A stretch of 64,000 nucleotides of DNA from Candidatus Shapirobacteria bacterium (GTDB taxonomy: Bacteria; Patescibacteriota; Microgenomatia; UBA12405): contig JAQWEN010000001.1 in assembly GCA_028704885.1 (NCBI GenBank), positions 350,679 to 414,678 on the forward strand. The letters are read 5' to 3'. The first letter of the stretch is position 1, and each line of letters opens with the position of its first letter. Below, in pieces: positions 16,784 to 46,262 of the stretch. A model generated the notes under the pieces. That model had not been told where the DNA came from. It saw only the letters and a program-made list of their open reading frames with translations, and ran no database searches. The translations under genes and the position numbers were made by a program.

Positions 16784-17959
16784 TTAATTATTTTTTCTTA
16801 AAAAGGCTGGAATGTCGTATTCGTCGACAATATCAATTCCGGCGGGAACTTCTTTGTTGTCTAAAAATTCTTTTATTTGATTGTCGCTAAGTTCGTTGGG
16901 TGTTAATAGATTATTATCTGATTTTTGGGTATTTTCTGCTTTAGGCATATTAATTAAAGTTGGTTGAGGTTTTTTTATATGCTGATAAAGACTGGCGCGA
17001 TTAGAGTCAAAACCAGTAGCAATGACAGAAATTTTTACTTTGCCTTTTAGATCATTATCAATGGTGGCACCAAAAATAATATTGGCGTCAGGAGCGGTTC
17101 TTTCAGTAATAGTTCTAGCGGCTTCTTCAATTTCGGCCATGGTAATGTCGGGTCCACCAGTAACATTAATTAAAACTCCTCTAGCACCTTCAATATTGAC
17201 CTCGATAAGGGGAGAATTGACGGCATCTTCGACGGCTTTTTGAACTTTATTTTCACCTTCAGCCTCGCCTACTCCCATTAACGCCGAACCAGCATTGCTC
17301 ATAACAGTCTTAATGTCAGCAAAATCGAGATTGATTAAACCTGGAACGGTAATTAAATCGGCAATAGCTTTAGTGCCCTTACTTAAAACAGAATCGGCAA
17401 TTTTAAAAGCTTCAAGAAGAGTGGCCTTAGTATTAACAACTTCCATGACTTTTTGGTTGGGAATGACAATTAAGGTATCGACATTTTCTCTTAATTGAGA
17501 AATTCCTTCTTCGGCATTGGTCATACGACGAGTACCTTCGAATAAAAATGGTTTAGTGACAACTCCGATAGTTAAAATACCTAATTCTTTTTTAGCAATT
17601 TGAGCAATAAGCGGAGCAGCTCCAGTACAAGTGCCTCCACCCATGCCGCCAGTAATAAAAACCATGTCGGTGCCTTCCAATACTTCTTTAATCCTTTCTT
17701 TGGATTCTTCGGCAGCTTTTTGACCAATTTGAGGATTACCGCCAGCCCCTAAACCCTTAGTTAATTTTTCGCCAATTTGAATTTTAACTGAGGCTAGAGA
17801 ATTTAATAAAGCTTGAGAATCGGTATTAACAGAAATAAAATCGACGCCTTTAATGGAATCTTCTAAAATCATTGAATTAATGGCATTATTACCACCGCCA
17901 CCAACTCCGATGACTTTTATTTTGGCAAATTGTCCAGTGAGAGTTTTAATTAATCCCAT
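16784..17959 (-). CDS. ftsZ: Cell division GTPase FtsZ
   Basis: [26 protein letters not shown] tubulin signature. Confidence 0.95.
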
Positions 17960-17962
17960 ATA

Positions 17963-19210
17963 TTAGGGTAAAAGTGGTTCTAGTAGTTTTTTTATCTTAC
18001 CGATAAATCCACCCATAGAAACTTTTGGAGCTTTAATGCTTGCCCCACTACTCTTTTTGGCATTTTTATTGTGAATCAAAAGACCAATGGTGCTAGTATA
18101 AGCTGGATTAATAATATCATCAACTATACCACCAACTCTTGGAGGGTTGGCAATTCTTAATGGAAGAGGAATTATTTTGTTACAGATTTCTTTGGCATTA
18201 ACAGTCATGGCGCCACCACCAGTTAAAACAATTCCAGCCGGAATTGATTGATGAAAACCACTGGCTTCAATTTGAGAATAAATTAGACTAAAAATTTCTT
18301 CTAAACGAGGTTTAATTATGCCATTTATAGCCATTTGGAGAGAGATTTTTTTCTTATCATCAGAGTGAATATCAAAATGAGATAATTCGATTTCATCCTC
18401 AAATTTTTTGGTTTCAGACAGTTTAGCCAATTTTAATTTTATTCTTTCGGCATCTTCGATGGAAAATCGAAGACCAATGGCAATGTCGTTAGTAACATTA
18501 TTGGCACCAACTGGAATTACAGAAGAAAATACTGGGGAACCTTCAATGAAAATAGTTATATTAGTAATGCTGCCGCCAATATCTACCAAAGCAACACCTA
18601 ATTCTTTTTCAGTTTCGGTTAGAGCGGCGGTGGCAGTACTCAATCCGGCGTAAGTTAAGGATTCAATTTTAATGCCAATGTCTTCAAGACATTTTTTGAG
18701 ATTTTTTAAAGCAGGACTGGAAGCCAAGATTAAATGAGCTTCAACTTCAAGGCGAATACCATTCATGCCGACTGGATCAATAACCCCCTCTTGACCATCA
18801 ACTGTAAATTTTCTTTGAATAATATGAATTATTTCTTTGCCACTGGGAAGAGAAATTGCTTTGGCAGCTTCAGTGACTCGGTTAATATCATTAATATCAA
18901 TTTCACCATTGGGATTACTAATAGCGACAACGCCATGTGAATTAACTGATTCAATATGAGGAGCGGAAATGGAAATATGAGCATTATTTATTTGAAAACC
19001 AGCCATTCTTTCGGCTGATTCAATACTTTGAGTAATAGTGTGGGAAGCCTGTTCCAGATTGATTATTTGACCTTTTCGAAAACCTAGGGAGGGAATTGAA
19101 GAAACGGCCACAATATTAAATTTATCTTCAGCTTCAAAATATTGACCAACTAGGGTAGTGACCTTTGAGGTACCGATATCGATTACATTAATTATTTTTG
19201 TATGTTGCAT
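17963..19210 (-). CDS. ftsA: Cell division protein FtsA
   Basis: Actin-like ATPase: INVIDIGTSKVTTLVG...DIGGSITNITIF...; position upstream of ftsZ. Confidence 0.9.
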   Translation of the reverse strand: MQHTKIINVIDIGTSKVTTLVGQYFEAEDKFNIVAVSSIPSLGFRKGQIINLEQASHTITQSIESAERMAGFQINNAHISISAPHIESVNSHGVVAISNPNGEIDINDINRVTEAAKAISLPSGKEIIHIIQRKFTVDGQEGVIDPVGMNGIRLEVEAHLILASSPALKNLKKCLEDIGIKIESLTYAGLSTATAALTETEKELGVALVDIGGSITNITIFIEGSPVFSSVIPVGANNVTNDIAIGLRFSIEDAERIKLKLAKLSETKKFEDEIELSHFDIHSDDKKKISLQMAINGIIKPRLEEIFSLIYSQIEASGFHQSIPAGIVLTGGGAMTVNAKEICNKIIPLPLRIANPPRVGGIVDDIINPAYTSTIGLLIHNKNAKKSSGASIKAPKVSMGGFIGKIKKLLEPLLP

Positions 19211-19571
19211 ATGGGTGGCTAATACTTAGATCAACTAATTGTAGTTGTTTATTATTAATTTTAGCTGTTTTTAAAATTTCTTGTAAAGAAGTAATTTGCC
19301 AATAAGGATTTTTTTTGGTTGATAAAATAATTTTAATTGGATTGTTACTTTCATTAATTATATAGAATTCGAATTGATTTTGATAATCCCTAGTAGTGCT
19401 TTTAGTGATGTTAATTTGGGCGGTTTTTAATCCGTGTTCTATTTGGAGATAAAAATTATTTTTGGTGGAAGTTGGATCAATTTTGTTTTCAGAAAAATTT
19501 ACTAGTGAATAAACAGAAAGGGATAAAGAAAAAATGAAAATAATAAAAAGAAAAATTTTAAATAATTTCAT
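19188..19571 (-). CDS. Small TM-anchored protein at the FtsQ/DivIB position (minimal FtsQ-like?)
   Basis: 127 aa, N-terminal TM (IFLFIIFIFSLSLSVYSL) then a beta-rich ectodomain; sits between murG and ftsA where ftsQ normally lies. Too short for canonical FtsQ. Confidence 0.3.
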   Translation of the reverse strand: MKLFKIFLFIIFIFSLSLSVYSLVNFSENKIDPTSTKNNFYLQIEHGLKTAQINITKSTTRDYQNQFEFYIINESNNPIKIILSTKKNPYWQITSLQEILKTAKINNKQLQLVDLSISHPYATYKNN

Positions 19572-20679
19572 GAATTAATCTTAAAAATTTTGGATTATCA
19601 GTTACTTTGATAATATTATTTTTGGTTTTAATAGAAATTAATTTATCTATGGAATTTAAAAGATTAATATTATTTAGATTTTTTTCTTCGATTATTTCAG
19701 TAATTTGAGGTAATTTTTCTTTTACCCAAAGGGCATTTAAAAATTGTTCATTTTGTTGACTGACTTTTAAAGGAATTAAAATAGATTTTTTATTTAAAGC
19801 GACGATTTCTTGGCTAGTGTTGGCTCCAGAGCGACTAATAATTAAATTTGATTTATTTAAACTGTAAGCCATATCATTGGCATCTAGATAATCAAAAGCC
19901 TGATAGTTAGAATATTTTTTTTCTAATTTTTTAAATTTGGAAAAATCATTTTTGCCTGTTTGATGAACAATAGAATATTTTTTTAATTGAGGTAAAAGAT
20001 TTTTGATAAATAAATTAATAGTATGAGAACCCTGATTACCGGCGGTAATAAAAATGTCGATTGGATCCCCTATTTTTGATTTTTTAGGATTAAAAAGTTC
20101 TTGACGTAAAAGATTTCCAGTAACAACTATTTTATTTTTGGGAAGGTTATCTTTTTGTTTTTGATTATTAAAAGAAAGAGCAACTATATTGACAAAAAGA
20201 CTATTAATTTTAGTAGTTAAACTGTTAGTTAAAGTTTGTTCATGGGTAATTGAGGGAATTTTTTTAAAAAAACCACTGATAATAATTGGAACAGAAACAT
20301 AGCCACCAAAAGAGACAATAATATCCGGTTTTATTTTTTTAATTAATCCAAAAGCCTTGAAAATTGATTTAGTGGTTTGGGGGAGACCTTTAAGGGTGTT
20401 TGGAAGCCAACGACGGTCTAATTTTCCACAATCAATTGAATAAAAATTGATCCCAATCTTGGGAATAATTTTTGATTCTATGGAAGGAGTATCATCAACA
20501 CTGGAATTATTTTTTCGACCGATATAATTTATTTGCCAAGCAATTTTAGGATCTGTCTTTAATTGTCGAATGAGTTCTAGAGCTGGAGTGAGATGTGTCC
20601 CGGTGATAATAATCGTCTTTTTTGTTTTGACTGTGGTCACTCTTTGAGTATAACAGCATTTTTTGGTTTTTTTCGACAT
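19558..20679 (-). CDS. murG: Lipid II synthase MurG (UDP-GlcNAc:MurNAc-pentapeptide GlcNAc transferase)
   Basis: IIITGTHLTPALELI (G-loop variant), C-terminal ISRSGANTSQEIVALNKKSILIP; first ATG at 20679 (ORF track uses TTG at 20703). Confidence 0.75.
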   Translation of the reverse strand: MSKKTKKCCYTQRVTTVKTKKTIIITGTHLTPALELIRQLKTDPKIAWQINYIGRKNNSSVDDTPSIESKIIPKIGINFYSIDCGKLDRRWLPNTLKGLPQTTKSIFKAFGLIKKIKPDIIVSFGGYVSVPIIISGFFKKIPSITHEQTLTNSLTTKINSLFVNIVALSFNNQKQKDNLPKNKIVVTGNLLRQELFNPKKSKIGDPIDIFITAGNQGSHTINLFIKNLLPQLKKYSIVHQTGKNDFSKFKKLEKKYSNYQAFDYLDANDMAYSLNKSNLIISRSGANTSQEIVALNKKSILIPLKVSQQNEQFLNALWVKEKLPQITEIIEEKNLNNINLLNSIDKLISIKTKNNIIKVTDNPKFLRLIHEII

Positions 20680-21724
20680 TTCTGACCAAACCAATGGCGA
20701 CAAAAAGAGTTAAAAGTGATGATCCCCCGTAGGAAATAAAAGGAAGAGGAACCCCAGTTAATGGAATTAAGGCAGCGATAGCGGAAATATTAATTAAACT
20801 TTGATAGGCAATCCAACAAGCGGTACCGGAAACTAGTAAACTTTGGAATGGATCAACTATTGTTTGAGAAAATTTTAGCAAGTAATTTATTAAAGAAAGA
20901 TATATTAACAGAACGACAAAGAGACCAATAAAACCAATTTCCTCTCCTATAACAGCCAGAATTGAATCGGTTGATATTTTGGGTAAAAATTTATATTTTT
21001 GGTCTGAATTGGCAAAACCTTTACCAAAGAGGCCTCCAGATGAAAGAGTCAAAATAATTTGATTACTGTGATAAGAAGAAGTTTCTTGATTTTGTTGTGG
21101 TTCTAGAAAAGTTTTTAGTCTGGCAGATCGATAAGGAGAAAGAAAAATTAGAGGGATACTTAAAACTAAAATAAGACTAATAATTCCAAACAAAGGCATA
21201 ACGTCGCCACCGGAAAGATAATAAATAGAACCAACAATTGCAGAAATTAGAATGGCGGTACTTAAATTTGGTTCGATGATTATAAGAATAAAAGGAATTC
21301 CTAAGTAAAGAATTAAATTTTTTATATGACGTTTTTCTTCTTTAGAAAAGAGATAAGCAAAATAAATGACAGAGCTTAGTTTTAAAATTTCTGATGGCTG
21401 GATGCTGGTAAAACCTAAATTAAGCCAACGTCTGGCCCCTAAAGCCTGATTGCCAAGTCCGGGAATTAAAACTAATATTAGGCCTAAAATAGAAGCTAGA
21501 TAAAAAATAAATGAAAATTTTTTAATAGTTTCAATTTTAATTTTAGAGGTTATATAAAAAGAAACTAGGCCTAATGCAAGCCAAAATCCCTGTTTTTTAA
21601 TAAAGAAAAATTTATCTCCGATAGTGGAATTGGCCTCACTTAAAGAAGAAATAGAAATAAAAATAAGACCAATAAAAATGAGACTAAAAACTAAAAATAG
21701 TAAGGGCGATTTAGTTTTTTTCAT
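20546..21724 (-). CDS. ftsW: SEDS-family cell division protein FtsW
   Basis: ISTDSILAVIGEEIGFIG, GVPLPFISYGGSS; dcw position upstream of murG. The polar C-terminal tail overlaps the murG 5' end by about 130 nt. Confidence 0.8.
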   Translation of the reverse strand: MKKTKSPLLFLVFSLIFIGLIFISISSLSEANSTIGDKFFFIKKQGFWLALGLVSFYITSKIKIETIKKFSFIFYLASILGLILVLIPGLGNQALGARRWLNLGFTSIQPSEILKLSSVIYFAYLFSKEEKRHIKNLILYLGIPFILIIIEPNLSTAILISAIVGSIYYLSGGDVMPLFGIISLILVLSIPLIFLSPYRSARLKTFLEPQQNQETSSYHSNQIILTLSSGGLFGKGFANSDQKYKFLPKISTDSILAVIGEEIGFIGLFVVLLIYLSLINYLLKFSQTIVDPFQSLLVSGTACWIAYQSLINISAIAALIPLTGVPLPFISYGGSSLLTLFVAIGLVRNVEKNQKMLLYSKSDHSQNKKDDYYHRDTSHSSSRTHSTIKDRS

Positions 21725-22826: not shown

Positions 22827-23587
22827 CCGGTGAGTATTATGACTGGATAATCGCCAACATCTAAATTATTTTTTATAGCTTTTTTTAGGCCAGCAAAAGC
22901 CATCGCACCTTCAAGAGAAGTTTTAATGTTGTTTGATTCTAGCGTTTTTTGAGCTTCTAAAATATCTTGATTTTGGATAATTAACTCTGAACCTTTAGAA
23001 TTTTTGACAGTGGAATTAACTTTATTTTTTAAAGGTTGATATTTAACAGTTAAAGCATCAGTTAAGATGGTGTTTTCTGGTTTAACAGCAAAAAATTTGA
23101 CAGATGGACTTAAAGCCTGGGAAATACCTAAAAGAGTGGTGCCGCTACCGACAGGAACAAAAATACTGGTTATTTGAGGTAATTCACTTACTAATTCTTT
23201 GCCAATTTCTTGATAACCAATTAAGGCTGATGGATCAGTTGATTGGCGAAGAAAATAGGCTTTATTTTTTTTGGAAAATTTAATAGCATCACTGATGGGT
23301 TTGTCGGAAATAATTATTTGACAATTATTTTTTTTAATTAAATCAAGTTTGTTTTGGTTGACTTTTGGAGAAAGGAAAACAGTTAAATTAATTTGATTAA
23401 GATGACAAAAATAGACAGCAGAAATAGCAGCGTTGCCAGTACTGGAAATAACAGCACTCTTAAAACCTTGTTTTTTTAAATTTGCTATTTGAAAAATTAA
23501 GCTTCGGTCTTTAGCTGAACCAGTAATATTAAGATCTTCTCTTTTAAAATATATATTTTCTAATTTAATTAAAGGAGTGTTTGCCAT
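22814..23587 (-). CDS. Compact PLP-dependent fold-type II enzyme (CysK/ThrC/Trp-synthase-beta superfamily)
   Basis: TPLIKLENIYFKREDLNITGSAKDRS (PLP-Lys motif), ISSTGNAAISAVYF, and C-terminal SLEGAMAFAGLKK...VIILTGCQR matches the CysK-type C-terminus. At 257 aa it is shorter than canonical CysK/ThrC. Confidence 0.65.
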   Translation of the reverse strand: MANTPLIKLENIYFKREDLNITGSAKDRSLIFQIANLKKQGFKSAVISSTGNAAISAVYFCHLNQINLTVFLSPKVNQNKLDLIKKNNCQIIISDKPISDAIKFSKKNKAYFLRQSTDPSALIGYQEIGKELVSELPQITSIFVPVGSGTTLLGISQALSPSVKFFAVKPENTILTDALTVKYQPLKNKVNSTVKNSKGSELIIQNQDILEAQKTLESNNIKTSLEGAMAFAGLKKAIKNNLDVGDYPVIILTGCQR

Positions 23588-23627
23588 ATAATAGCTTAAT
23601 TATACTAGTTATTAATTTTAATAAAAC

Positions 23628-23786
23628 ATGAACGAAAAAGTTATTTGTCCGGATTGTCAAACAGAAATTGAATTAATTGAAGCCACAATGGTTGGAGATA
23701 TTATTGAATGTCCAGAATGTGGGACCGAAGTAGAAATTTTATCTCTAAATCCCCTAAAATATCGGGAATTAATTGAGGAAAAGTAA
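23628..23786 (+). CDS. Unannotated 52-aa zinc-ribbon protein resembling LysW/ArgW amino-group carrier proteins
   Basis: ATG 23628, TAA 23784-23786. Translation: MNEKVICPDCQTEIELIEATMVGDIIECPECGTEVEILSLNPLKYRELIEEK. The pseudo-repeat CPxC..E.EL....G.IIECPECG.E.EI..L.PL mirrors the LysW pattern as I recall it (Thermus CPECGAELRLENPELGELVVCEDCGAELEVVGLDPLRLE), but it ends EEK rather than EDWGE. It falls below the ORF-track length cutoff. Confidence 0.45.
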   Translation: MNEKVICPDCQTEIELIEATMVGDIIECPECGTEVEILSLNPLKYRELIEEK

Positions 23787-24323
23787 TCGATAAAAACCTT
23801 GATGGATAAATTTTTTATCAGTAAGATCGGCTTGGCCATATTTTACTCCCCTACCAGAAAAAGAACTATCAACATAATTGATAATATTACCCTGTTTTTC
23901 GATGATAAATAAAACATGGTGACCATTTTTTTGGCGGACTAAATCACCGGTTTGAATGTTGTTTAAATCGGTTATTTCCTTGGAAATTGGAGCGGAGGTA
24001 AGCATGTCAGCGGAAGTTTTTCGGGGATTAAGGTTAGTTTCAAAATAAAAATTTAACAATTGGCAAACAAGACCAGAACAATCGATTCCAAGATGATTCT
24101 TTTTTTGAAAGTTATAAAATTCTTGATTGGTTAATTTAACCAAATCTATTTTTTGTTTTTGAGCAAGTCTAATAGTTTCAGTAGCAATTTGTCGATAATT
24201 GCCTTTACCACCAAGAAATTGTTCCTTAATTATTTTGCCGTCTTTAAGGATGTTTTTACTATAGGGTAAGCCAATATAATATTGAATTTCCTGTTTTAAT
24301 AAATCTAATTTATTCCCAGCCAT
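23769..24323 (-). CDS. NlpC/P60-family cysteine peptidase (papain-like Cys/His)
   Basis: GIDCSGLVCQLL is the catalytic Cys motif DCSGLV; GHHVLFII supplies the His. First ATG at 24323; the ORF track extends to a TTG at 24389. Confidence 0.55.
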   Translation of the reverse strand: MAGNKLDLLKQEIQYYIGLPYSKNILKDGKIIKEQFLGGKGNYRQIATETIRLAQKQKIDLVKLTNQEFYNFQKKNHLGIDCSGLVCQLLNFYFETNLNPRKTSADMLTSAPISKEITDLNNIQTGDLVRQKNGHHVLFIIEKQGNIINYVDSSFSGRGVKYGQADLTDKKFIHQGFYRLLFLN

Positions 24324-25339
24324 AATCCAAAAATTGCTAATATAATCCCAGCTAACCAAGCGCGCATAACTATCTTTGGTTCTTCCCAACCAATACTTTG
24401 AAGAGTTAAATGAAGAGGGGCAGCGGGAAATATTTTTCTTTTTAAATATTTTTTACTAAGTAATTGAATGCCACTAGACATACCTTCGATAATGAAAGGA
24501 GCACCGACAATTATTAAGGGGACTATTTTTCCTAAAAGAAGAGCAATAACAGCGAAGGTGGCTCCAAAAGAAAGGGAACCAACATCACCAAGCCAAATTC
24601 TGGCTGGATAGACATTAAAATATAAGAAAGCGATTAGGGCGCCAATCCAAAGAGCTAAAAATGAGGAAATAACAGTATCTAGAGAATTATTGGCTAAAAT
24701 CCAAAATGCAAATAAAGCAATCATTAGTAATCCACTAGAAAGTCCATCTAGACCGTCAGTAATATTAAAGAAATTAGCAAAACCAGTAATAATAATAGTA
24801 GAAATGGGAATGAAGAAAAAACTCAGATGAACAGCTCCGAAAAATGGTAGATAAATAAATTCTATTTTTAGTTGAAAATAAATCATTAAAGAAATAATTA
24901 ACGAAATTATTATTTGTAAAATGAATTTATGGATCATTCTTAATCCAAAAAAACCAGTTCTTTTAAAGCCAAAGAATTTATTAATATCATCGTAAAGACC
25001 TAATAATCCGAAACTAATAAAGGTAAAGAATAGAATAAATAATTCTTGTTCTATGTTGTAATTAGAGGAAATAAAAATTCGAGAGAATTTGAGAATAGGG
25101 AAAAGAATTATAAACATGAGGCAAACAGAGACGATGATTAACAGGCCTCCACCGACAGGAGTTCCTGATTTTTGATTGTGAAATTTATCAAAAATAGTGG
25201 TTCTTTTATTTTGAAAATCAGTGGTTTTTTGAACTTGTCGTTGGAATTTTAGTTTATAAAGAAGATTAATAAAAGGAACAACTAAAATACTAGAGATTAA
25301 GAAGGAAAAAAGGACTAGACCGAGATATAAGTGCATCAT
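24305..25339 (-). CDS. mraY: Phospho-N-acetylmuramoyl-pentapeptide transferase MraY
   Basis: NFFNITDGLDGLSSG, DDINKFFGFKR, multi-TM. Confidence 0.9.
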   Translation of the reverse strand: MMHLYLGLVLFSFLISSILVVPFINLLYKLKFQRQVQKTTDFQNKRTTIFDKFHNQKSGTPVGGGLLIIVSVCLMFIILFPILKFSRIFISSNYNIEQELFILFFTFISFGLLGLYDDINKFFGFKRTGFFGLRMIHKFILQIIISLIISLMIYFQLKIEFIYLPFFGAVHLSFFFIPISTIIITGFANFFNITDGLDGLSSGLLMIALFAFWILANNSLDTVISSFLALWIGALIAFLYFNVYPARIWLGDVGSLSFGATFAVIALLLGKIVPLIIVGAPFIIEGMSSGIQLLSKKYLKRKIFPAAPLHLTLQSIGWEEPKIVMRAWLAGIILAIFGLWLGIN

Positions 25340-25343
25340 AAAT

Positions 25344-26672
25344 TTAGGTTTTTATATACTCTATGTTAGCACCTAAAGAACAAAGACGTTCAGCTAATTT
25401 TTCATATCCTCTTTCAATATATTCAACACCGTCAATAATTGAAATGCCGGGTGCTGTAAGAGCGGCAACAGTGGCGGAAGCTCCAGCTCGAAGGTCGTTA
25501 ATGACAAAATTGGCTGGTTTGAGCATGGTGGGTCCATAAATTTTTACACCGTGGAAATATTCTGGATTATCACTGGCTTGGTTAAATTGATAGTAACTAT
25601 CAGGATCGTCAATGATTGGATTAAAAAATTTAAATTTGCTGCCCATTTTTTTAAGATTTTCAATGTGTTGAAATCTGTTTGGAAAAACTGTTTCAATAAG
25701 AGAACTACAACCGACAGTTTGGGTTAAAAGTACAGTAAAAATTGCCTGCCAGTCAGTCATAAATCCTGGTTCTGGGCCAGTTTCAATATCAATACTGGTT
25801 AACGGCTTTACCCATTGAATACAAATTTCATCATTACCAATTCTGACTTCGGCCCCCATTTTTTTTATAGTATCTAAAAAGGTTTTGACTATATCTGGTT
25901 TGATTCTTAAGATGCAGATAGAACCTTTGGTTGCCAAAGCGGCACAAGCAAAAGTAACAATTTCATTTCGATCACAAATTACACTGTGTTCGGTTCCATT
26001 TAGAGAAGAAACTCCCTGAATAGTAATTCTTTTTTCATCGGTTGGGTCTCTTTGAATTTTAGCCCCCATTTTATTTAACATTAAAATAAGATCATCTATT
26101 TCTGGTTCAAGAGCGGCATTATCAATAATGGTTTCACCTTCAGCTAGAACGGCGGTCATAATAATTACTTCGGTGACAGTATGAGATGGTTTGGTAAAAG
26201 TATAATGAGTACCAATAATTTTGTCGGTATTAAAGGTAATTTTATGATCTGTTTCGGAAACTTTAATATTCATTTGAGAGAAACAATCAAAAAGACGATC
26301 AAGAGGTCGGTTGCCTAATTTGTCTCCTCCTGGAGACGGAATGGTGGCGGTGCCAGTTCTGGCGAGAAGTGGAGCCACAAAAATAAAAGAAGTTCTAGAT
26401 TTTTCACCAGTACCACTGGGAACAATTGAATTAGTTATTTCTGGAGTAATTAATTCAAGACAATGCTCCCCTGTTTGTTTTACTTGACAGCCGAGACTTT
26501 TAGCAATACTGGTAGTTATTTTTACATCGGATATCTGAGGAACATTATTTAACAAGACGGTTTTGTCGGTCAACATTGAAGCAATTACTTGTTTGAAACT
26601 AGCGTTCTTGGCACCTCTAATAGAAACTTCGCCTTTAAGTTGTTTTCCGCCGGTTATTATGTATCTGGACAT
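25344..26672 (-). CDS. murA: UDP-N-acetylglucosamine 1-carboxyvinyltransferase MurA
   Basis: ITGGKQLKGEVSIRGAKNASFKQVIASML...LNNVPQISDV; 442 aa. Confidence 0.9.
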   Translation of the reverse strand: MSRYIITGGKQLKGEVSIRGAKNASFKQVIASMLTDKTVLLNNVPQISDVKITTSIAKSLGCQVKQTGEHCLELITPEITNSIVPSGTGEKSRTSFIFVAPLLARTGTATIPSPGGDKLGNRPLDRLFDCFSQMNIKVSETDHKITFNTDKIIGTHYTFTKPSHTVTEVIIMTAVLAEGETIIDNAALEPEIDDLILMLNKMGAKIQRDPTDEKRITIQGVSSLNGTEHSVICDRNEIVTFACAALATKGSICILRIKPDIVKTFLDTIKKMGAEVRIGNDEICIQWVKPLTSIDIETGPEPGFMTDWQAIFTVLLTQTVGCSSLIETVFPNRFQHIENLKKMGSKFKFFNPIIDDPDSYYQFNQASDNPEYFHGVKIYGPTMLKPANFVINDLRAGASATVAALTAPGISIIDGVEYIERGYEKLAERLCSLGANIEYIKT

Positions 26673-26675
26673 AGT

Positions 26676-28049
26676 TTATTTTAAAGAATTAATAATAGAT
26701 TTGACAATCTTGTTTGCCTCAAAACCGCCAGAACTCATATTTATTAAAATGTCACCACTTTTAAGATTTTGTTTGTAAAAATTAACAATATCTTCGTCTA
26801 TGGGAATATAAATTAAATTTTGACCAATGATATCTCTAAAATCTTTGGCAGTACTGCGATTATTTTTGTCGATAATATTATTATAGTTTAATTTAGATAA
26901 AACAATTTCAGAAGCTAAAGAGAAAGCATTTTTAAAATCTTTTAAACTTTCTTTATGTTGAATAAAAGAGGCATGAGGTTGATATAAAACTTTGATATTT
27001 CTTTTGGGAAAATGAGATTTAATGGCTGATAATGTAGATTTGATTCTGTTTGAAGATTGGGCAAAATCATCAAAAATCATGATATTTTTTTTATCAATAA
27101 TTTTTTCGATTCGACGTTTAATGCCTTTAAAAGTTAAAACAGCCTTTTTAATATCTGTTTGATTTAGATTAAGACTGTCGGCCATAGCAACTGCGGCTAA
27201 AATATTTTCAAAATTTAGTTGGCCGATTAATTTGGTTTTAATTTGAATAGTATTTCTGGGAGTTCTAATCTCTAAAAGAGAATAATTCTTTTTTATTTTG
27301 ATATTTTTCAGATAATAATCGGAATTGGATGAATTATAAGTAATTATTTTCGATTTGGAATAAAGACTTAATTCTTTGGTTTGAAAGCCTTTGGAATTAA
27401 TAAGTAAAAATCCTTTTTCGGGAATATTAGTTATTAATTTTTTAAAAGCATTAAAATTAGCAATTTCGGTTGAATAGGAATCTTTGTGCTCCCAATCAGC
27501 ACTGGTTAATAATAAAAATCTGACTGGATAATACAAGAATTTGGCTTGATCGTCGAGTCCATGAATTGATTCATCAGCTTCGACAATAGACCAATCTGAG
27601 GAAGAAATATTGGTAGCCGGAAAATGGTTAATAGCTTCGCCGCCAAACATATAGTTTGGATTGAGATTTGATTGACAAAAAATCCAAGAAATTAAAGAAG
27701 TAATAGTTGTTTTACCATAAGTTCCGGCAATTAAAACAGAATTTTCTTTAATTAAGTTTTCGGCAATAAATTGACTTGCTGAAATATATTTTATATTTAA
27801 TTTTTTAATTTGGTCGAATTCTTCTTTGGTATTTTTAAAATTAGAAAATGAAGAACCGATTATGGCTAAGTCGATAGTGGAGTCAATTTTGGAAGAATTT
27901 ATTTTAATATCAGTTTTTTTAAGAAGAGTACTGACAGGGGGATATATTTTTTCCTGATCAGAACCGGTAACTATATGACCTTCTTTTTTAAGAGCAACAG
28001 CCAAGGAGGCCGTCATAGTTCCAGCTATTCCTAAAATATGGATGTGCAT
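26676..28049 (-). CDS. MurC/Mpl-family Mur ligase; N-terminus most similar to murein-peptide ligase Mpl
   Basis: MHIHILGIAGTMTASLAVALKKEGHIVTGSDQEKIYPPVSTLL closely parallels E. coli Mpl MRIHILGICGTFMGGLAMLARQLGHEVTGSDANVYPPMSTLL (from memory); P-loop IAGTYGKTT; EADES. Confidence 0.7.
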   Translation of the reverse strand: MHIHILGIAGTMTASLAVALKKEGHIVTGSDQEKIYPPVSTLLKKTDIKINSSKIDSTIDLAIIGSSFSNFKNTKEEFDQIKKLNIKYISASQFIAENLIKENSVLIAGTYGKTTITSLISWIFCQSNLNPNYMFGGEAINHFPATNISSSDWSIVEADESIHGLDDQAKFLYYPVRFLLLTSADWEHKDSYSTEIANFNAFKKLITNIPEKGFLLINSKGFQTKELSLYSKSKIITYNSSNSDYYLKNIKIKKNYSLLEIRTPRNTIQIKTKLIGQLNFENILAAVAMADSLNLNQTDIKKAVLTFKGIKRRIEKIIDKKNIMIFDDFAQSSNRIKSTLSAIKSHFPKRNIKVLYQPHASFIQHKESLKDFKNAFSLASEIVLSKLNYNNIIDKNNRSTAKDFRDIIGQNLIYIPIDEDIVNFYKQNLKSGDILINMSSGGFEANKIVKSIINSLK

Positions 28050-28076
28050 AATAAATTAATTTTTAATTTGAAATTT

Positions 28077-28670
28077 TTAAACATATGGAATCCAATTACT
28101 ATCTTTAAAATATTCAAAACCAGGCATATTTCTTTTGTAATAACCTGACTCTTGAGAAAAACGACCAAGATAACAATATTTTAAGCCTAATCCTTGACTG
28201 TCGATTATAACTTGGAGAACTAATCTGATTGGTAAATTACTGTTGGCAAAAGCTGGATTGTAAAAAACATAAGCAATATGGCTAATTTCTTTTGAAAAAT
28301 AACACAAAGAATAGGCAATAATTTTATTTTGATCGTCTTTCCAAATATATAGATAATTAAAAATATGATTTCTAAAAACGTTTTTTACGGAACTGACTGG
28401 AAAATCCCAAGCAAGGGTTTTTGTCCAACTAATAATTTCTTTTTGAATTTTAAAATTATAATCAAAATCTTTTAGAGCTATTTTTTCAAAAGTAAAGTTT
28501 TCGGTTTTTCTTAAAATTCGGCGATTTTCTGAACTTAAATTGAAATTTTCTAAATTAGAACGACAACTGGTTTGAAAATAAAATGAATTTTTATCGTTTC
28601 TTTGGGGTAAAAGTCCGTTTTTATAATTTTCCTCAATACTATTAGTATTTTTTAAATTGAATTGAGTCAT
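28077..28670 (-). CDS. Ate1/Bpt-like aminoacyl-tRNA-protein transferase homolog (ATE_C-like), tentative
   Basis: SHIAYVFYNPAF...NLPIRLVLQVI and YCYLGRFSQESGYYKRNMPGFEYF parallel recalled Ate1 C-domain segments (SSVYFFYDPDY...[37 protein letters not shown]). No CGYC N-motif is present. Confidence 0.35.
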   Translation of the reverse strand: MTQFNLKNTNSIEENYKNGLLPQRNDKNSFYFQTSCRSNLENFNLSSENRRILRKTENFTFEKIALKDFDYNFKIQKEIISWTKTLAWDFPVSSVKNVFRNHIFNYLYIWKDDQNKIIAYSLCYFSKEISHIAYVFYNPAFANSNLPIRLVLQVIIDSQGLGLKYCYLGRFSQESGYYKRNMPGFEYFKDSNWIPYV

Positions 28671-28672
28671 TT

Positions 28673-29974
28673 TTATTTTATTTTTCTAAGTCTAAAAGCG
28701 GTTCTGAAAGCTTCTGCTTCAGACCAAGGATATTCGGTGTGACCATGAAGAATAGTGGTCTCATGGCCTTTACCACAAGCAATAACAACATCATTTGGTT
28801 GACTTAGTTTAATAGCTAAGTTGAAAGCATCTTGACGATTGGGGATATTAAAATAAACAAATTTATTTTTTGATAATTCAATTATTTTTTGAATTTGTTT
28901 TTTAGTTTTGATTTCTTGATAATCAATCAATTCTGATTTTTTAGGATCTATGCCACCAATTATCTGTTTGTTAATATTTTCTATTTTTTCATTTCTAGTG
29001 TCATCAGAGGTAATTAAGGCAATATTAGCTAATTTAGAAACAATTTCACCCATTTTAGGACGTTTGGATTGATCTCGTCCACCAGTGGCTCCAAAAATAA
29101 CAATAAGATTACCTTTGTTAATTTTTTTAAGTGATGAAAGTGACGATTCTAGGGCAAAAGGAGTATGGGCAAAATCTATAATAGTTTTAAATTTAAAATC
29201 ATTTGAAATTTCTTCTCGACGACCTTTGGTTTCGGGAAAATGCTCGATGGCTTTTTGGACAAAAGATGAATCAATTTTTAATTTTTGACAAACGGCTATG
29301 GCTAGAAGGATATTATAAATTTGATATTCGTAATTACTATCGGTGGTAAATTTCTGATCATTAACTTCAAAACTAAGAAGATTTTGATCTAATTTAATTT
29401 TTTTGGCTTGATAGTCTGAATTTTCTTTAATACTGAATGTTTTAAAAGGAACTTTAATTTGTTTTTTAATAATTTCGAAAGATTGATCATCTTTATTTAA
29501 AACGGCATTTTTTGATAAAGAAAATAATTTGGCTTTGGTATTAATGTAATTATTTAAATTTTTGTGATAATCAAGATGTTCATGGGAAGTGTTGGTAATT
29601 CCAGAAATTTCAAAATTACATCCAGAAAAACGATACTGATCAAGAGCATGAGAAGTAACCTCACAAACAACATGAGTTATTCCAGCCTTAACCATTTCAG
29701 CAAGAATTTTTTGAAGTAAAGATGGGTCTGGGGTGGTAGTGTGAAAACCAGTGTCGATTTCCCGATCTTCAATTTTGGCACCAATAGTAGTAATTAAGCC
29801 TGTTTTTAGACCAGATTGCTTTAAAATTTCATGAATTAAGGTACAGGTGGTAGTTTTACCATCGGTTCCAGTAATTCCAATAAGAGTCAATTTTCTTGAA
29901 GGAAATCCGTAGTAAAAGTTATAAAAAATACTTTTAGGTAGATGAATTCCAATATTTTTAAGTTTTTGAATCAT
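28673..29974 (-). CDS. murE: UDP-MurNAc-tripeptide synthetase MurE-like Mur ligase lacking the usual N-terminal UDP-binding domain
   Basis: FYYGFPSRKLTLIGITGTDGKTTT (P-loop), IIDFAHTP (D-x-A-H-x-P), IVIFGATGGRDQSKRPKMG...ALITSDDTRNE, ACGKGHE; only about 25 aa precede the P-loop. Confidence 0.7.
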   Translation of the reverse strand: MIQKLKNIGIHLPKSIFYNFYYGFPSRKLTLIGITGTDGKTTTCTLIHEILKQSGLKTGLITTIGAKIEDREIDTGFHTTTPDPSLLQKILAEMVKAGITHVVCEVTSHALDQYRFSGCNFEISGITNTSHEHLDYHKNLNNYINTKAKLFSLSKNAVLNKDDQSFEIIKKQIKVPFKTFSIKENSDYQAKKIKLDQNLLSFEVNDQKFTTDSNYEYQIYNILLAIAVCQKLKIDSSFVQKAIEHFPETKGRREEISNDFKFKTIIDFAHTPFALESSLSSLKKINKGNLIVIFGATGGRDQSKRPKMGEIVSKLANIALITSDDTRNEKIENINKQIIGGIDPKKSELIDYQEIKTKKQIQKIIELSKNKFVYFNIPNRQDAFNLAIKLSQPNDVVIACGKGHETTILHGHTEYPWSEAEAFRTAFRLRKIK

Positions 29975-29986
29975 TTCGGTGTTTAA

Positions 29987-31636
29987 TTATAACAAATCGT
30001 TTAGTTTTGACGCTAATTCGTACCAAATTGGAGCGGCGGTACTTGATCCCCAAGGGGAAGTTTTAGGATTATTAATGGTAACAATCATAGTAAATTTTGG
30101 GTTTTCACAGGGTGAAAAACCAATATATGAAGCAATGGTTTTAGAATCAGTATACTCTCCACCAATAGCTATTTGAGCAGTACCACTTTTAGCACAAACT
30201 TCCAGATTTTTAGGTTTAAATTGGGAAACAACACCATTTTCAACGGCATATTTTAAAATTGATTTCATATCCTTAATGGTTTGATCACTAAAGATTTTAG
30301 TTTCAGTTTGATTTTTATTTTTAATGATTTTATCCCCTTCTGTAAAATAATTGACAACTTTTGGTTTAACTAAAATACCGTTGTTAGCGATAGTATTAAA
30401 AGCTTGAAGCATATTAATTTGAGTGACGACAATCCCTTGGCCAAAGGAAGCGGTGGCTAAATCAATTTCTGGCCATTCGGTTTTTAATGATGGTTTGGCT
30501 TCTCCTTGAAGATCAATACCGGTTTTTTGACTAAGCCCAAGTTTTTGATAATAATTTAGGAAATTTTTAGTGCCAAGCTTAGCAATAATATGACTCATGC
30601 CGATATTGTCTGAGTTTTTGATAATATCTTGAAGACTAGAATCGGGATGAAGTTCATTATCCCAATTACTAATAAAATATTTACCGATAACATTGGGTCG
30701 ATTACATTGAGTACAAATATAGTTTGTGTTTATCGCTTTGGCATCGAGGGCCATAGAAACAATTATTGGTTTAAAAATTGATCCTGGTTCAAAAAGATCA
30801 GAGATAGCCGGATTCCTAATGGAACTGATTGTAGCCGAACTGCTGCTAGTAAGAGAAGACATAGCAATAATAGCTCCGGTTTTTGGTTCCATAATAGTAA
30901 TAGATCCAGAATCAGCCGAATATTTATCGATACCTTCTTTTAAAAGTTTTTCAACATAAAATTGAGCACTACGATTAATGGAGGTAAAAATATTTCTACC
31001 ATTTACTGATTCAGAGCTCCAACTTTTTTTATTTAGAATGGTCTTACCAGTGGCGTCTTGAGGGGCCCAAACAAAACCGGTTTTACCTTTTAATTGTTTT
31101 TGATAAAAAGCTTCTAGTCCCCCATAACCAACTTGTGATCCTTGGTAATCTTTACTAATAATTCCGAGAAGATCTTTAGCCATTAAATTTTCTGGATAAT
31201 ATCTTTTGGCTATTGTTTGAAATTCAAGCCCAGGAATTTCCAATTGTTTTTTTTGATTGTCGCTAAAATAGGAATTAAAAGTAATCCATTTTTGATTGGA
31301 ATTATTTTTAAATTTATCAATTGAAATATTGTTTTCAAGCTTAAAATCAGGATAAACTTGGTCGATTTTATCAATAACTTCGTCTAAACTATTTTTTAAA
31401 TTTGGTTTATAAATTGATAGTTGATAGATAGTTTGATTTAAAACCAAAGGAAAATTATCTGATGAATATATTTCTCCGCGTTCAGGGATTATTTTTTCTA
31501 GTTTATAAGCTTGGTTTTGAGCTTTTTCTTTTAATTCAGGTCCTTTTATAATTTGCCAATAAAAAAGCCGTGAAGAGACTAAAATAAAGCAGAAAGTTAG
31601 GGCAATAGATAATATTTTTGATCTTTGATTTACCAC
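29987..31636 (-). CDS. ftsI: Penicillin-binding protein (FtsI/PBP3-like transpeptidase)
   Basis: N-terminal TM, SIFKP (SxxK), SDN, KSGTA (KTG variant); GTG start. Confidence 0.85.
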   Translation of the reverse strand: MVNQRSKILSIALTFCFILVSSRLFYWQIIKGPELKEKAQNQAYKLEKIIPERGEIYSSDNFPLVLNQTIYQLSIYKPNLKNSLDEVIDKIDQVYPDFKLENNISIDKFKNNSNQKWITFNSYFSDNQKKQLEIPGLEFQTIAKRYYPENLMAKDLLGIISKDYQGSQVGYGGLEAFYQKQLKGKTGFVWAPQDATGKTILNKKSWSSESVNGRNIFTSINRSAQFYVEKLLKEGIDKYSADSGSITIMEPKTGAIIAMSSLTSSSSATISSIRNPAISDLFEPGSIFKPIIVSMALDAKAINTNYICTQCNRPNVIGKYFISNWDNELHPDSSLQDIIKNSDNIGMSHIIAKLGTKNFLNYYQKLGLSQKTGIDLQGEAKPSLKTEWPEIDLATASFGQGIVVTQINMLQAFNTIANNGILVKPKVVNYFTEGDKIIKNKNQTETKIFSDQTIKDMKSILKYAVENGVVSQFKPKNLEVCAKSGTAQIAIGGEYTDSKTIASYIGFSPCENPKFTMIVTINNPKTSPWGSSTAAPIWYELASKLNDLL

Positions 31637-31637
31637 T

Positions 31638-31895
31638 TTAATTTTGAAGATTAAGAGTCTCTTTTAAATTTATATAGTTTTTTTGGTTAATTAAGGTTTG
31701 GATTTGACTTAAAGAAGTTAGAGACGTAAATTGTTTTTTTAATTCTTGATTGGCAATTTTTAAGGATTGAAGACTACTTTGGTTTTTATTAATTGAATTA
31801 TTTTGATTAATAATTTCACTGGAATAATAAAAAGAAAAAAGGATCTGGCAGGCAATTAAAATAAAGAGAATTAGAAAAAATGGTTTATTTAACAT
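31638..31895 (-). CDS. FtsL-like small bitopic cell-division protein
   Basis: 85 aa, N-terminal TM then a coiled-coil/polar tail; located between rsmH and ftsI. Confidence 0.4.
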   Translation of the reverse strand: MLNKPFFLILFILIACQILFSFYYSSEIINQNNSINKNQSSLQSLKIANQELKKQFTSLTSLSQIQTLINQKNYINLKETLNLQN

Positions 31896-31896
31896 C

Positions 31897-32769
31897 TTAT
31901 ACTATTCTATACGATCTTAGGGTGGCTGAGCGAGAGAGTGGGTTTTTCTTAATTTCTTCAAAGGAAGCTTTGACTGATTTTTCGGCTTGACATAAAGGGT
32001 TTTGATTTAAGAATAGTTTAACAATTCTATCTTCACCGGAATGAAAAGTGATTATACAAACTTTTCCATCTTTTTTAACAACATTTAGACTTTGAATAAG
32101 TAGTTTTTTTAAATTTTCAAATTCATCGTTAACTATAATTCGAAGGGCCATAAAAATTTTTGTACTAGGATCTATTTTTGATCTGATATGACGGTCTTTG
32201 TAAAAATCTCGAATAATATTTGCCAATCTGGTGGCTGTTTTTATAGGTGATTTTTGACGTTCACTGATTATTCTTAAGACAATTGGTTTGCTATAAATTT
32301 CTTGGGCATATTTACTGAATATTTCAAAAAGCTCATCGTAGTCGTAAGTATTAATAATTTCTTCAGCAGTTAATTCTTGATTTTCTGGGTCGAGACGCAT
32401 ATCTAAGGAAGATTCGTCATTAAATGAAAATCCCCTACCTTGACCGGTTTGTTGATTTTGACTTAAGCCTAGATCAATAATTAAACCGTCAATTTTTTGT
32501 TTGATTTGATTGGTTACAATATTTTCCAATTCGTTAAAATTATTATGAACAGGAAAAAAGTGATTTTTGAAACCAGCTTCTTTAATACGGTTAGTGGCAA
32601 TTTCTAAATTTTGAGGATCTTGATCAATACCATAAACAAGGCCACCTTTTTTGAGAATTTCTAAAGTGTGGCCACCGTGACCAAGAGTGCCGTCGACATA
32701 AATTTTGTCTGGTTGGACATTAAGAAGATCAATAGTTTCGGTTGATAAAACTGGAATATGGAAATCCAT
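31897..32769 (-). CDS. rsmH: 16S rRNA (cytosine1402-N4)-methyltransferase RsmH/MraW
   Basis: HIPVL...DGTLGHGGHT...GIDQD; SAM-MTase fold. Confidence 0.9.
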   Translation of the reverse strand: MDFHIPVLSTETIDLLNVQPDKIYVDGTLGHGGHTLEILKKGGLVYGIDQDPQNLEIATNRIKEAGFKNHFFPVHNNFNELENIVTNQIKQKIDGLIIDLGLSQNQQTGQGRGFSFNDESSLDMRLDPENQELTAEEIINTYDYDELFEIFSKYAQEIYSKPIVLRIISERQKSPIKTATRLANIIRDFYKDRHIRSKIDPSTKIFMALRIIVNDEFENLKKLLIQSLNVVKKDGKVCIITFHSGEDRIVKLFLNQNPLCQAEKSVKASFEEIKKNPLSRSATLRSYRIV

Positions 32770-33473
32770 TATTGAGCAATGTAATCACCAACTATGGAAG
32801 TAAGATCTGTTTTAGTGACAGGGCTTGGTTCAATTGAAGTGATTTTACCTTTACCGTTGCCACTGGAAAAAACAGAATAAACAGAATTGAAATTTTTAAT
32901 AACGACAAAATAATCAGTTTTAGAAGCGACAGTGCCATTAATAATTAAATTTTCCTGATCCAAGGTTAATTTTTTTGCTTTATTAAGATCGGTGGCACTT
33001 TTTAAAGTGAAGGGAGTTTCGTAACTGACATATTGTTTGTCAGCAGTGGTTAAAGTTAAAGTAAGTGTTCCACCATTAACACCTTCGTCATATTTATATT
33101 TACAACCATTGGTACAACTGGCAGTGCCTAGCAATAAATCATCTTTTTCTAGTTCAGAACCAGTGAGCTTGATGGTACCACTGACACCTTTTTCGATTTC
33201 TAAATCTTGATCTTTGGCAGTATAAATTAATTCATAATCGACAGTGGTAAATTTAGTGGGTATTCCGGTAATTTTAAGAGTTAAATTGTGACCATCGGCG
33301 CGGGGAATAAGATTAACAACGGGTTTTTCGGTAGGACTTAATTCTATTTCTTTAGAAGCTTTTGTAGTTTCGGCTGGGGTATTAACGATAGTTTTTTTGT
33401 TACGGTAGAATAAAAAAGCTAATAGTAAAACTACGATAACGACTGGAAGTAAAATAATTGTTATTTTTTTCAT
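32769..33473 (-). CDS. Hypothetical membrane-anchored extracytoplasmic protein at the mraZ position
   Basis: N-terminal TM (ITIILLPVVIVVLLLAFLFY) plus a beta-rich domain; not MraZ-like. Confidence 0.35.
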   Translation of the reverse strand: MKKITIILLPVVIVVLLLAFLFYRNKKTIVNTPAETTKASKEIELSPTEKPVVNLIPRADGHNLTLKITGIPTKFTTVDYELIYTAKDQDLEIEKGVSGTIKLTGSELEKDDLLLGTASCTNGCKYKYDEGVNGGTLTLTLTTADKQYVSYETPFTLKSATDLNKAKKLTLDQENLIINGTVASKTDYFVVIKNFNSVYSVFSSGNGKGKITSIEPSPVTKTDLTSIVGDYIAQ

Positions 33474-37330: not shown

Positions 37331-37350
37331 ACTAAGAGTTTAACTTAAAA

Positions 37351-37989: not shown

Positions 37990-37991
37990 TT

Positions 37992-42152: not shown

Positions 42153-42153
42153 T

Positions 42154-46261: not shown

Positions 46262-46262
46262 A

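Follow-up and report, generated by a model that had tools for sequence, protein, structure and literature searches.

A conserved variant dcw cluster in Candidatus Shapirobacteria and a possible carrier-dependent route to D-glutamate in the peptidoglycan stem peptide

Introduction

The division and cell wall (dcw) cluster of Candidatus Shapirobacteria, members of the Microgenomates within the Candidate Phyla Radiation (CPR), holds a conserved and unusual set of genes where murD and murF would be expected. We analysed it in a 64,000-nt window from assembly GCA_028704885.1 (contig JAQWEN010000001.1, positions 350,679-414,678), in which the cluster occupies positions 16784-33473. The set encodes a LysW-like protein, a pyridoxal phosphate (PLP) enzyme, an ATP-grasp ligase, an NlpC/P60 peptidase and a transferase coupled to an Mpl-like ligase, and is found in about 80 Shapirobacteria species and in related Microgenomates. 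It suggests that the first part of the peptidoglycan peptide is made in a way not yet described. Our preferred reading, to which we give a probability of about 0.4, is that the genes provide D-glutamate, the second residue of the stem peptide, on a carrier, and that an Ate-like transferase and the Mpl-like ligase take the place of MurC and MurD.

The cytoplasmic Mur pathway (MurA-F and the racemases), an important target of antibiotics, is regarded as almost universal among bacteria that have a wall. To our knowledge, MurD2/MurL is the only well-documented bypass of its D-Glu step. The canonical order of the dcw cluster, the best-conserved gene cluster in bacteria, is mraZ-rsmH-ftsL-ftsI-murE-murF-mraY-murD-ftsW-murG-murC-murB-ddl-ftsQ-ftsA-ftsZ. 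A complete Microgenomates genome has been reported with 'essentially complete' peptidoglycan pathways (PMC7143001). In the literature on Microgenomates and CPR peptidoglycan, dcw clusters and murI we found no published description of the architecture reported here, or of a LysW-like protein in peptidoglycan synthesis.

Results

Gene content and order of the cluster

Every open reading frame (ORF) in 16784-33473 was scanned against Pfam and NCBIfam. The window has about 31% G+C and tightly packed genes, and neighbours within the cluster overlap or stand a few bases apart. The minus strand keeps rsmH, ftsI, murE, mraY, ftsW, murG, ftsA and ftsZ in their canonical relative order (Table 1). The murF slot holds the Ate-like aminoacyl-tRNA transferase, the Mpl-like ligase and murA, while the murD slot holds the NlpC/P60 peptidase, a LysW-like zinc ribbon on the opposite strand, the PLP enzyme and the ATP-grasp ligase. 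The cluster shares its backbone order and tight packing with canonical dcw clusters, and is a dcw cluster in heavily altered form. It differs in having six non-canonical genes and murA in the murF and murD slots, one gene being on the opposite strand, and in lacking mraZ, murF, murD, murB, ddl and murC from their usual places.

An earlier note on this DNA had proposed this gene order, and the scans reproduced it. It had also claimed that murD, murF, ddl, murB and mraZ were absent from their usual slots, which held up in the ORF scans and six-frame searches. No homologue of MurB, MurD, MurF, Ddl, MurI, Alr or MraZ was found among the window's ORFs of 90 aa or more, by six-frame searching with references from E. 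coli and of CPR type, or within 10 kb beyond either end of the window. Neither the window nor any Shapirobacteria locus examined contained a MurD-like ORF. The ATP-grasp protein scored 15.8 bits against the Ddl model TIGR01205 (cut-off 245.65), in agreement with the claim that the cluster has no Ddl-type ATP-grasp. The zinc ribbon described on the opposite strand is present and can now be called LysW-like. There are indeed genes at the ftsL and ftsQ slots, but the names FtsL-like and FtsQ-like reflect position only; the FtsQ-slot protein has no similarity to E. coli FtsQ. The presence of murA inside the cluster was correctly noted but is not exceptional, as the longest known form of the dcw cluster contains both murA and murB (PMC8871954). 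About 11 related loci have no murA in the cluster.

Conservation in Shapirobacteria

A scan in which each species was represented by one genome identified 95 relatives and yielded 80 loci, almost all of which carry the label Shapirobacteria. Every sufficiently long locus of the 80 had the same order, ftsI-murE-Ate-Mpl-like-(murA)-mraY-NlpC/P60-LysW(opposite strand)-PALP-ATP-grasp-ftsW-murG-...-ftsZ-ileS-rodA, where PALP is the PLP enzyme, and the same order was present on a 1.12-Mb contig. Identity to the window proteins was 40-84% for the ATP-grasp ligase, 56-98% for the LysW-like carrier, 66-91% for the Ate-like protein and 71-92% for MraY. The ATP-grasp protein is identical to one from a Candidatus Shapirobacteria metagenome-assembled genome (MAG). 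So conserved an order shows that the arrangement is neither chance nor decay. The comparison of dcw synteny across related genomes suggested in the earlier note therefore came out in favour of a real architecture: judged by their sequences, the cluster genes are functional and under purifying selection, and not pseudogenes. The cluster is the vertically inherited dcw operon of Candidatus Shapirobacteria.

One MAG labelled Shapirobacteria (GCA_002793695.1, loci L098/L099; L numbers are our labels for relatives' loci) has the order mraZ-...-ftsI-alr-ddl-murE (split)-303-aa unknown-NlpC/P60-like (opposite strand)-murF-second murE paralogue-mraY-ftsW.

Relatives outside Shapirobacteria

The wider ATP-grasp family was collected by a profile search of 1.8 billion representative proteins, which gave 219 representatives at E < 1e-30, and the contexts of several members were inspected. 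The genes of the murD slot, hereafter the cassette, lie between mraY and ftsW in L089, L092, L094 and L097. The order in L089 is that of the Shapirobacteria. L092 reads murE-Ate-Mpl-like-murA-MurF-mraY-LysW-PALP-ATP-grasp-ftsW, and L094 has a cluster of this type with MurF and, in addition, MurB and an NlpC/P60 homologue. L097 reads Ate-Mpl-like-MurB-murA-Ddl-MurF-...-mraY-NlpC/P60-LysW-PALP-ATP-grasp-ftsW-murG-...-ileS-rodA.

In a second group of relatives the LysW-PALP-ATP-grasp triad immediately follows a MurD gene (L091/L100, L102, L104). L102 and L104 have the order murD-LysW-PALP-ATP-grasp-ftsW-murG-murC, followed in L104 by murB. In L091, a PALP/ATP-grasp fusion (P0396; P numbers label relatives' ATP-grasp-family proteins) stands beside the LysW-like gene, directly after a MurD-like ligase and outside any dcw cluster. 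A metagenome scan with the MurD of L091, in which neighbours were mapped for 80 relatives, found murI adjacent in 29 of the 80 loci, the triad adjacent in three and both in none.

LysW-like ribbons also occur right after murD, on the opposite strand, at L144:9322-9537, L158:6884-7057 and L163:8852-9025. We did not count these as further triads: the next gene is holA, and the tails end in ...EEKIDE or ...TEETEE.

Sister clusters hold the cassette together with Ddl, MurF and MurB, so the cassette is not a replacement for these enzymes. We rejected it as a MurF substitute, MurF coexisting with it in L092, L094 and L097, and likewise rejected the ATP-grasp ligase as a substitute for Ddl and the PLP enzyme as a substitute for Alr, as true Ddl (L097, L099) and Alr (one relative) coexist with cassette genes. 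On this comparison the Shapirobacteria cluster appears to be a derived state, from which murB, ddl and murF have gone by later loss or relocation. Relocation is the likelier of the two because FtsI is intact, murA is kept and its product needs MurB, and the sister clusters hold the missing genes. It is thus probable that murF, ddl and murB are encoded elsewhere in the genome. A search with a sister-lineage MurF gave only matches of at least 54% identity, none of them on a contig known to have the variant cluster, though a Shapirobacteria orthologue would probably rank lower. A metagenome scan with a CPR MurD similarly had no contig with the variant cluster among its matches, which likewise says little on whether the genome encodes murD.

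Proteins of the murD slot

The LysW zinc-ribbon domain of the carrier is confirmed by PF21344 (47.6 bits, cut-off 27), and both CxxC pairs (CPDC...CPEC) are kept. The protein fails the LysW equivalog model TIGR01206, scoring 38.9 bits against a cut-off of 53.2. Across about 70 orthologues its C-terminal tail, ...EEK, is invariant apart from rare EQK or ETK forms, and the EEK tail is also present in the distant relatives L089, L091, L092, L097, L102 and L104. The LysW-like gene is always opposite to the operon strand, even in these six distant loci; read-through of the dcw operon would therefore be antisense to it. Within 23587-23790, it diverges from the PLP enzyme gene across a 40-nt AT-rich gap, and its 3' end overlaps that of the NlpC/P60 gene by 18 nt.

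LysW family proteins carry Glu or alpha-aminoadipate. Like the LysW/ArgW systems, the cluster places a zinc-ribbon LysW domain beside an ATP-grasp ligase and a hydrolase, and the logic of tethering an amino acid would be shared. The tails are different: known carriers end in ...EDWGE, with the gamma-carboxyl of the Glu carrying the substrate, whereas the carrier here ends in Lys. The known partners, RimK-type LysX/ArgX with LysZ/Y/J/K, are not found here either, there being no kinase, reductase or aminotransferase. The carrier is partnered instead by a PLP enzyme of fold-type II, in a setting of peptidoglycan synthesis.

The PLP enzyme keeps a PLP-lysine motif, TGSAKDRS, and an SSTGNAA loop. 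Its nearest NCBIfam models are threonine synthases, but its score of 96 bits is so far under the cut-off of the best of them (358) that it is not a threonine synthase. Its relatives in the PDB include threonine deaminase, serine racemase and aspartate racemase. PALP and ATP-grasp domains are fused in P0304 and in the 782-aa P0396, indicating that the two proteins work together.

The idea that the ATP-grasp ligase is a LysX/RimK-type enzyme was supported neither by sequence nor by fold ranking. The family's closest match to NCBIfam PRK06524, P0327 (493 aa), is in a different operon (L093:5643-12930), with a 7TM-transglutaminase protein, a second ATP-grasp, MATCAP, FGase, a Ddl-like protein and GNAT, probably a peptide-modification system.

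The NlpC/P60 peptidase, which just exceeds the cut-off of 23 bits for PF00877, keeps its catalytic Cys motif GIDCSGLV and a downstream His in 68 orthologues. Homologues are present in L089, L094, L097 and L099. By eye it has no evident signal peptide, and it is probably cytoplasmic.

Proteins of the murF slot, MurE and FtsI

The Ate-like protein scores just under the ATE_C cut-off (PF04377; 24 against 25 bits), matches arginyltransferase models at E = 1e-8 and is without an ATE_N domain. It has no sequence match in the PDB and no FemAB Pfam match at E <= 0.01. Its AF2 model has a pLDDT of 93, and the top Foldseek matches are ATE1 (TMq 0.70, probability 1.00) and MprF and other aminoacyl-phosphatidylglycerol synthases. 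By its predicted fold it would be an aminoacyl-tRNA transferase. The fold resembles that of the ATE1/Bpt, FemXAB and MprF superfamily, the MprF matches being to the C-terminal domain. The protein differs from these in being a single 197-aa domain without ATE_N or a FemAB signature, and in being encoded between murE and an Mpl-like ligase.

This ligase falls below the cut-offs for both MurC (TIGR01082; 240.7 against 335.1 bits) and Mpl (TIGR01081; 192 against 388.7 bits). In BLASTP comparisons it is closer to E. coli Mpl (29% identity, 173 bits) than to E. coli MurC (24%, 103 bits), and its best PDB match is the Mpl of P. arcticus, 3hn7. The ligases encoded beside the Ate-like gene in the window, L089, L092, L094 and L097 all score 42-117 bits higher against E. 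coli Mpl than against MurC and form their own clade, apart from true MurC, in keeping with the Mpl-like label of the earlier note. Where murD is kept in the cluster and the ligase gene has its canonical place after murG (L102, L104, L112), MurC gives the higher score, and these ligases group with MurC. On these sequences ligase type appears to follow gene context: Mpl-like beside the Ate-like gene, MurC-like after murG where murD is kept. The Ate-like and Mpl-like genes are neighbours throughout. In L089 they are fused, encoding a 645-aa protein, which indicates that the two proteins work together.

In several ways the ligase resembles the Mpl of muropeptide recycling: it is nearer Mpl than MurC, has the length and N-terminus of Mpl, and is accompanied by a seemingly cytoplasmic NlpC/P60 peptidase like the YkfC-type enzymes. 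In contrast to that system, its score is below the cut-off, it is apparently the sole MurC-family ligase of a dcw operon, it is coupled or fused to an aminoacyl-tRNA transferase, and MurE is kept.

MurE scores well above the TIGR01085 cut-off of 257.3 bits, but its alignments begin near its own residue 20, at model position 75 and at about residue 94-138 of PDB MurE chains. This late start, together with the end of ftsI only 12 nt upstream, which leaves no room, shows that the N-terminal domain is missing. The protein keeps the P-loop GTDGKTT and has DDTR in place of DNPR. Its best match in the PDB, T. maritima MurE, aligns DDPR at this position and was deposited as an LD-lysine ligase. MurE and MurF of these Microgenomates, at about 400-440 aa, are without the N-terminal UDP-binding domain (window 28673-29974; L092:6574-7836; L094:5867-7114; L099:10001-12450), and the MurF search showed that the short MurF form is widespread in Microgenomates. 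We had considered the missing domain as a sign of a non-nucleotide substrate. That idea is weakened, as the short forms are general in Microgenomates, including the cassette-free MAG.

The FtsI motifs SIFK, SDN and KSG are kept in all 53 orthologues, so that a DD-transpeptidase substrate ending in D-Ala-D-Ala is to be expected.

Other features of the window

The coordinates of the cluster genes are collected in Table 1. The listed TTG start of murG overlaps ftsW by 158 nt, and the real start is probably further downstream.

Table 1. Genes of the variant dcw cluster, listed in the direction of the minus strand.
Feature	Position	Strand	Evidence and remarks
234-aa protein, hydrophobic N-terminus, mraZ slot	32769..33473	-	No Pfam/NCBIfam match; orthologues in the same place in many Shapirobacteria loci
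rsmH (mraW), 16S rRNA methyltransferase	31897..32769	-	PF01795, 278 bits
85-aa FtsL-slot protein	31638..31895	-	Position only; DivIC E = 0.098; kept in most related loci
ftsI, class B penicillin-binding protein (PBP) / DD-transpeptidase	29987..31636	-	PBP_dimer + Transpeptidase
murE, without N-terminal UDP-binding domain	28673..29974	-	TIGR01085, 356.7 bits
Ate-like aminoacyl-tRNA-dependent transferase, 197 aa, single GNAT-like domain	28077..28670	-	ATE_C 24 bits; predicted fold
Mpl-like ligase of the MurC/Mpl family, 457 aa, with N-terminal nucleotide-binding domain	26676..28049	-	murC 240.7 bits, mpl 192 bits
murA	25344..26672	-	TIGR01072, 412 bits, above cut-off
mraY	24305..25339	-	PF00953; TIGR00445, 169 bits
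NlpC/P60-like cysteine peptidase	23769..24389	-	PF00877, 23.1 bits; true start probably an internal Met near 24323
LysW-like zinc-ribbon carrier protein, 52 aa	23628..23786	+	PF21344, 47.6 bits
Compact fold-type II PLP (PALP) enzyme, 257 aa	22814..23587	-	PF00291, 138 bits
Novel ATP-grasp ligase, 371 aa	21711..22826	-	
ftsW	20546..21724	-	PF01098, 305 bits; TIGR02614, 315 bits
murG	19558..20703	-	Glyco_transf_28 N + C domains; TIGR01133, 178 bits
127-aa FtsQ-slot protein, hydrophobic N-terminus	19188..19571	-	Position only; no Pfam match; kept in most loci
ftsA	17963..19210	-	FtsA + SHS2_FTSA
ftsZ	16784..17959	-	Tubulin + FtsZ_C

A glycine-tRNA ligase (GlyRS; 33475-34797, 567 bits) lies directly upstream of the cluster and shows a zinc-ribbon-like insertion at about residues 94-122. 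That it stands next to a cluster with an aminoacyl-tRNA transferase gene could be a clue to which amino acid is used, or a coincidence. Directly downstream of ftsZ is ileS, followed at 11738-12733 by a second SEDS protein (shape, elongation, division and sporulation), which is RodA-like (288 bits) and has no PBP2, MreB, MreC or MreD gene adjacent to it. The downstream block ileS-rodA-L21-L27-parB is kept in Shapirobacteria and sister lineages.

Extensive glycan-synthesis regions flank the dcw cluster at 35375-52496, 4162-7077 and 55768-62904. They encode a DUF4012 protein, a Bac_transf priming transferase, more than ten glycosyltransferases of families GT1, GT2 and GT4, two Wzy-like polymerases, a flippase, a UDP-glucose dehydrogenase and a sulfatase-family protein resembling lipoteichoic acid (LTA) synthase. 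A nucleoside diphosphate kinase (NDK; 1542-2153, 203 aa) has about 95 extra N-terminal residues, its best NDK match covering residues 96-182. Proteins from the two ends of the window map to two contigs of GCA_028685145.1 (JAQUEN010000005.1 and JAQUEN010000001.1), and a 735,491-nt contig also carries window proteins; the window thus belongs to a more contiguous assembly in which the two are joined.

Discussion

We infer every catalytic assignment that follows from what the cluster and its relatives display: gene content, conservation, fusions and neighbourhood patterns. In the reading we prefer, the four murD-slot genes would act as one unit for residue 2 of the stem peptide, D-glutamate. The ATP-grasp ligase would tether L-Glu by a carboxyl group to the epsilon-amino group of the carrier's C-terminal Lys, and the PLP enzyme would epimerise the tethered Glu, its alpha-amino group left free. 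The NlpC/P60 peptidase, whose family is specific for amide bonds that contain D-Glu, would then free the product and regenerate the carrier. The net result would be an ATP-driven, one-way L-to-D conversion in place of the glutamate racemase MurI. The Ate-like transferase would add residue 1 (L-Ala, Gly or Ser, from tRNA) to the amino group of the D-Glu, and the Mpl-like enzyme would join the dipeptide to UDP-MurNAc, with MurE, MraY, MurG, FtsW and FtsI following as usual. The ancestral cluster would have included murB, ddl and murF, which would have been dropped from it in the Shapirobacteria stem.

Three independent lines of evidence tie the triad to residue 2: its position in the murD slot or just after murD, its complementarity with murI, and the Glu and alpha-aminoadipate background of LysW. 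The idea of an epimerase comes from the PLP superfamily, which includes serine and aspartate racemases. The role proposed for the Ate-like protein comes from its fold matches to ATE1 and MprF, the acceptors of the ATE family being N-terminal Asp or Glu. Each proposed reaction is typical of its enzyme family.

There is a precedent for an alternative, ATP-dependent route to the D-Glu residue in the established MurD2/MurL system of Xanthomonas and some Actinobacteria (PMC8788868). The likeness is in an ATP-consuming route that does without glutamate racemase and is encoded with Mur genes, although here the route is a proposal. The components are different. The known route combines a Mur ligase (MurD2) with an epimerase (MurL) whose substrate is the UDP-linked dipeptide, whereas the Shapirobacteria cluster has no MurD-like gene and instead encodes an ATP-grasp ligase, a PLP enzyme and a carrier.

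A number of observations weigh against a D-glutamate module. The PLP enzyme's motifs, TGSAKDR and STGN, are of the threonine-synthase type, and the serine-racemase signature is missing; epimerase activity is therefore a guess. The triad coexists with MurD in L091, L102 and L104. In the last two a true MurC is kept as well, with no NlpC/P60 gene in view. Release by the peptidase and the part played by the Ate-like and Mpl-like proteins are therefore not common to all lineages. The L092 cluster, too, is without an NlpC/P60 gene. The complementarity of murI and the triad rests on three triad loci, and murD, murI and murC may sit elsewhere in Shapirobacteria genomes. Finally, L098/L099 has neither murD nor the cassette between mraY and ftsW, so that murD is often outside the cluster in Microgenomates anyway.

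A more elaborate form of the scheme would have both residues 1 and 2 built on the carrier, off the nucleotide. Glu would be tethered, epimerised and then aminoacylated by the Ate-like protein, the NlpC/P60 peptidase would cut off the L-Ala-D-Glu, and only then would the Mpl-like ligase join it to UDP-MurNAc. This would be a convergent route, dependent on carrier and tRNA, replacing MurC, MurD and MurI in an entire lineage of bacteria. We think this improbable.

A competing account, unlikely in our view, is that the cluster has been rearranged, with murD, murF, ddl, murB, murC and murI elsewhere in the genome, and that the extra genes decorate peptidoglycan with cross-bridges or side branches. 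The PLP enzyme would be a racemase and the ATP-grasp protein a D-amino-acid ligase, as in the pair of aspartate racemase and D-aspartate ligase known from enterococci and lactococci, the Ate-like protein a Fem-type branch transferase and the NlpC/P60 protein a remodelling peptidase. Pairs of ATP-grasp ligase and racemase for D-Asp cross-bridges are established biochemistry, and genes clearly do relocate in this group, as murA is found both inside and outside the cluster and sister clusters contain murB, ddl and murF. FtsI looks catalytically intact, the Ate-like protein shares with MprF the fold of one superfamily of aminoacyl-tRNA transferases, and GlyRS lies directly upstream, all of which would suit a decoration system. 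However, the Ate-like protein has no FemAB Pfam match, and decoration gives no role to a LysW-like carrier with an invariant EEK tail. Nor does it explain why the triad is repeatedly placed in the murD slot or near murD and is complementary to murI, or why an Mpl-like enzyme, fused to the transferase, should be the one ligase of the cluster that has a nucleotide-binding domain.

The earlier note read the cluster as a partly salvage-based or chemically unusual pathway, plausibly exploiting host muropeptides if the organism is an episymbiont. An unusual precursor pathway is still the most reasonable reading, but salvage from a host has no specific support. Salvage would involve imported peptides trimmed by the NlpC/P60 peptidase and re-attached to UDP-MurNAc by the Mpl-like ligase, making MurC and MurD, and perhaps MurF and Ddl, dispensable. 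The Mpl-like character of the ligase fits this, as does a peptidase that shows no evident signal peptide and keeps its catalytic Cys, and few CPR are metabolically as poor as Shapirobacteria (PMC6744442). However, no peptide transporter, LD-carboxypeptidase or amidase is encoded in the cluster or the window, murA and murE are still there and are strongly conserved, and L092 has the triad and the Mpl-like ligase with no NlpC/P60 gene. Salvage also leaves the carrier, the PLP enzyme, the ATP-grasp ligase and the tRNA-dependent transferase without a function. With nothing specific for uptake, and a genomic context that points to the D-Glu/MurD step, we consider host-muropeptide salvage doubtful at best.

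The cassette might instead supply a non-canonical diamino acid for position 3, which seems to us less probable again. The PLP enzyme could, for example, carry out a beta- or gamma-replacement onto the epsilon-amine of the carrier's terminal Lys to give a lysinoalanine-type surrogate for diaminopimelate (DAP), which the peptidase would free before the ATP-grasp ligase reloaded the carrier with Lys. This would make sense of PLP motifs that are threonine-synthase/SbnA-like and of the replacement type, of the invariant terminal Lys, and of the Arg that MurE keeps in its DNPR-equivalent motif, DDTR. No precedent for a lysinoalanine-type residue in peptidoglycan is known to us, though no search for one was made, which counts against it. 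The triad is associated in genomes with murD and murI and not with murE, and T. maritima MurE, the best PDB match, has DDPR and was deposited as an LD-lysine ligase. CPR bacteria are generally without amino-acid biosynthesis (PMC7143001), a further point in favour of a surrogate.

That the extra genes are a small-molecule or peptide-modification operon inserted in the dcw cluster by chance is disfavoured and the least probable account of all: more distant ATP-grasp family members do occur in unrelated contexts (L093, L095/L096), but in the contexts inspected those accompanied by LysW-like and PALP genes are always in dcw clusters or beside murD, and the genes overlap their dcw neighbours, one being fused to a Mur ligase.

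If these proteins do supply or install D-Glu, they would represent a new biochemical solution to an essential step, and the first use of an amino-acid carrier protein in cell-wall synthesis. The Ate-like transferase would provide a direct link from tRNA to the backbone of the stem peptide. Such a route would also alter how CPR genomes are assessed for their ability to make peptidoglycan, as the lack of murD or murI in them is readily taken for a sign of incompleteness or of dependence on a host.

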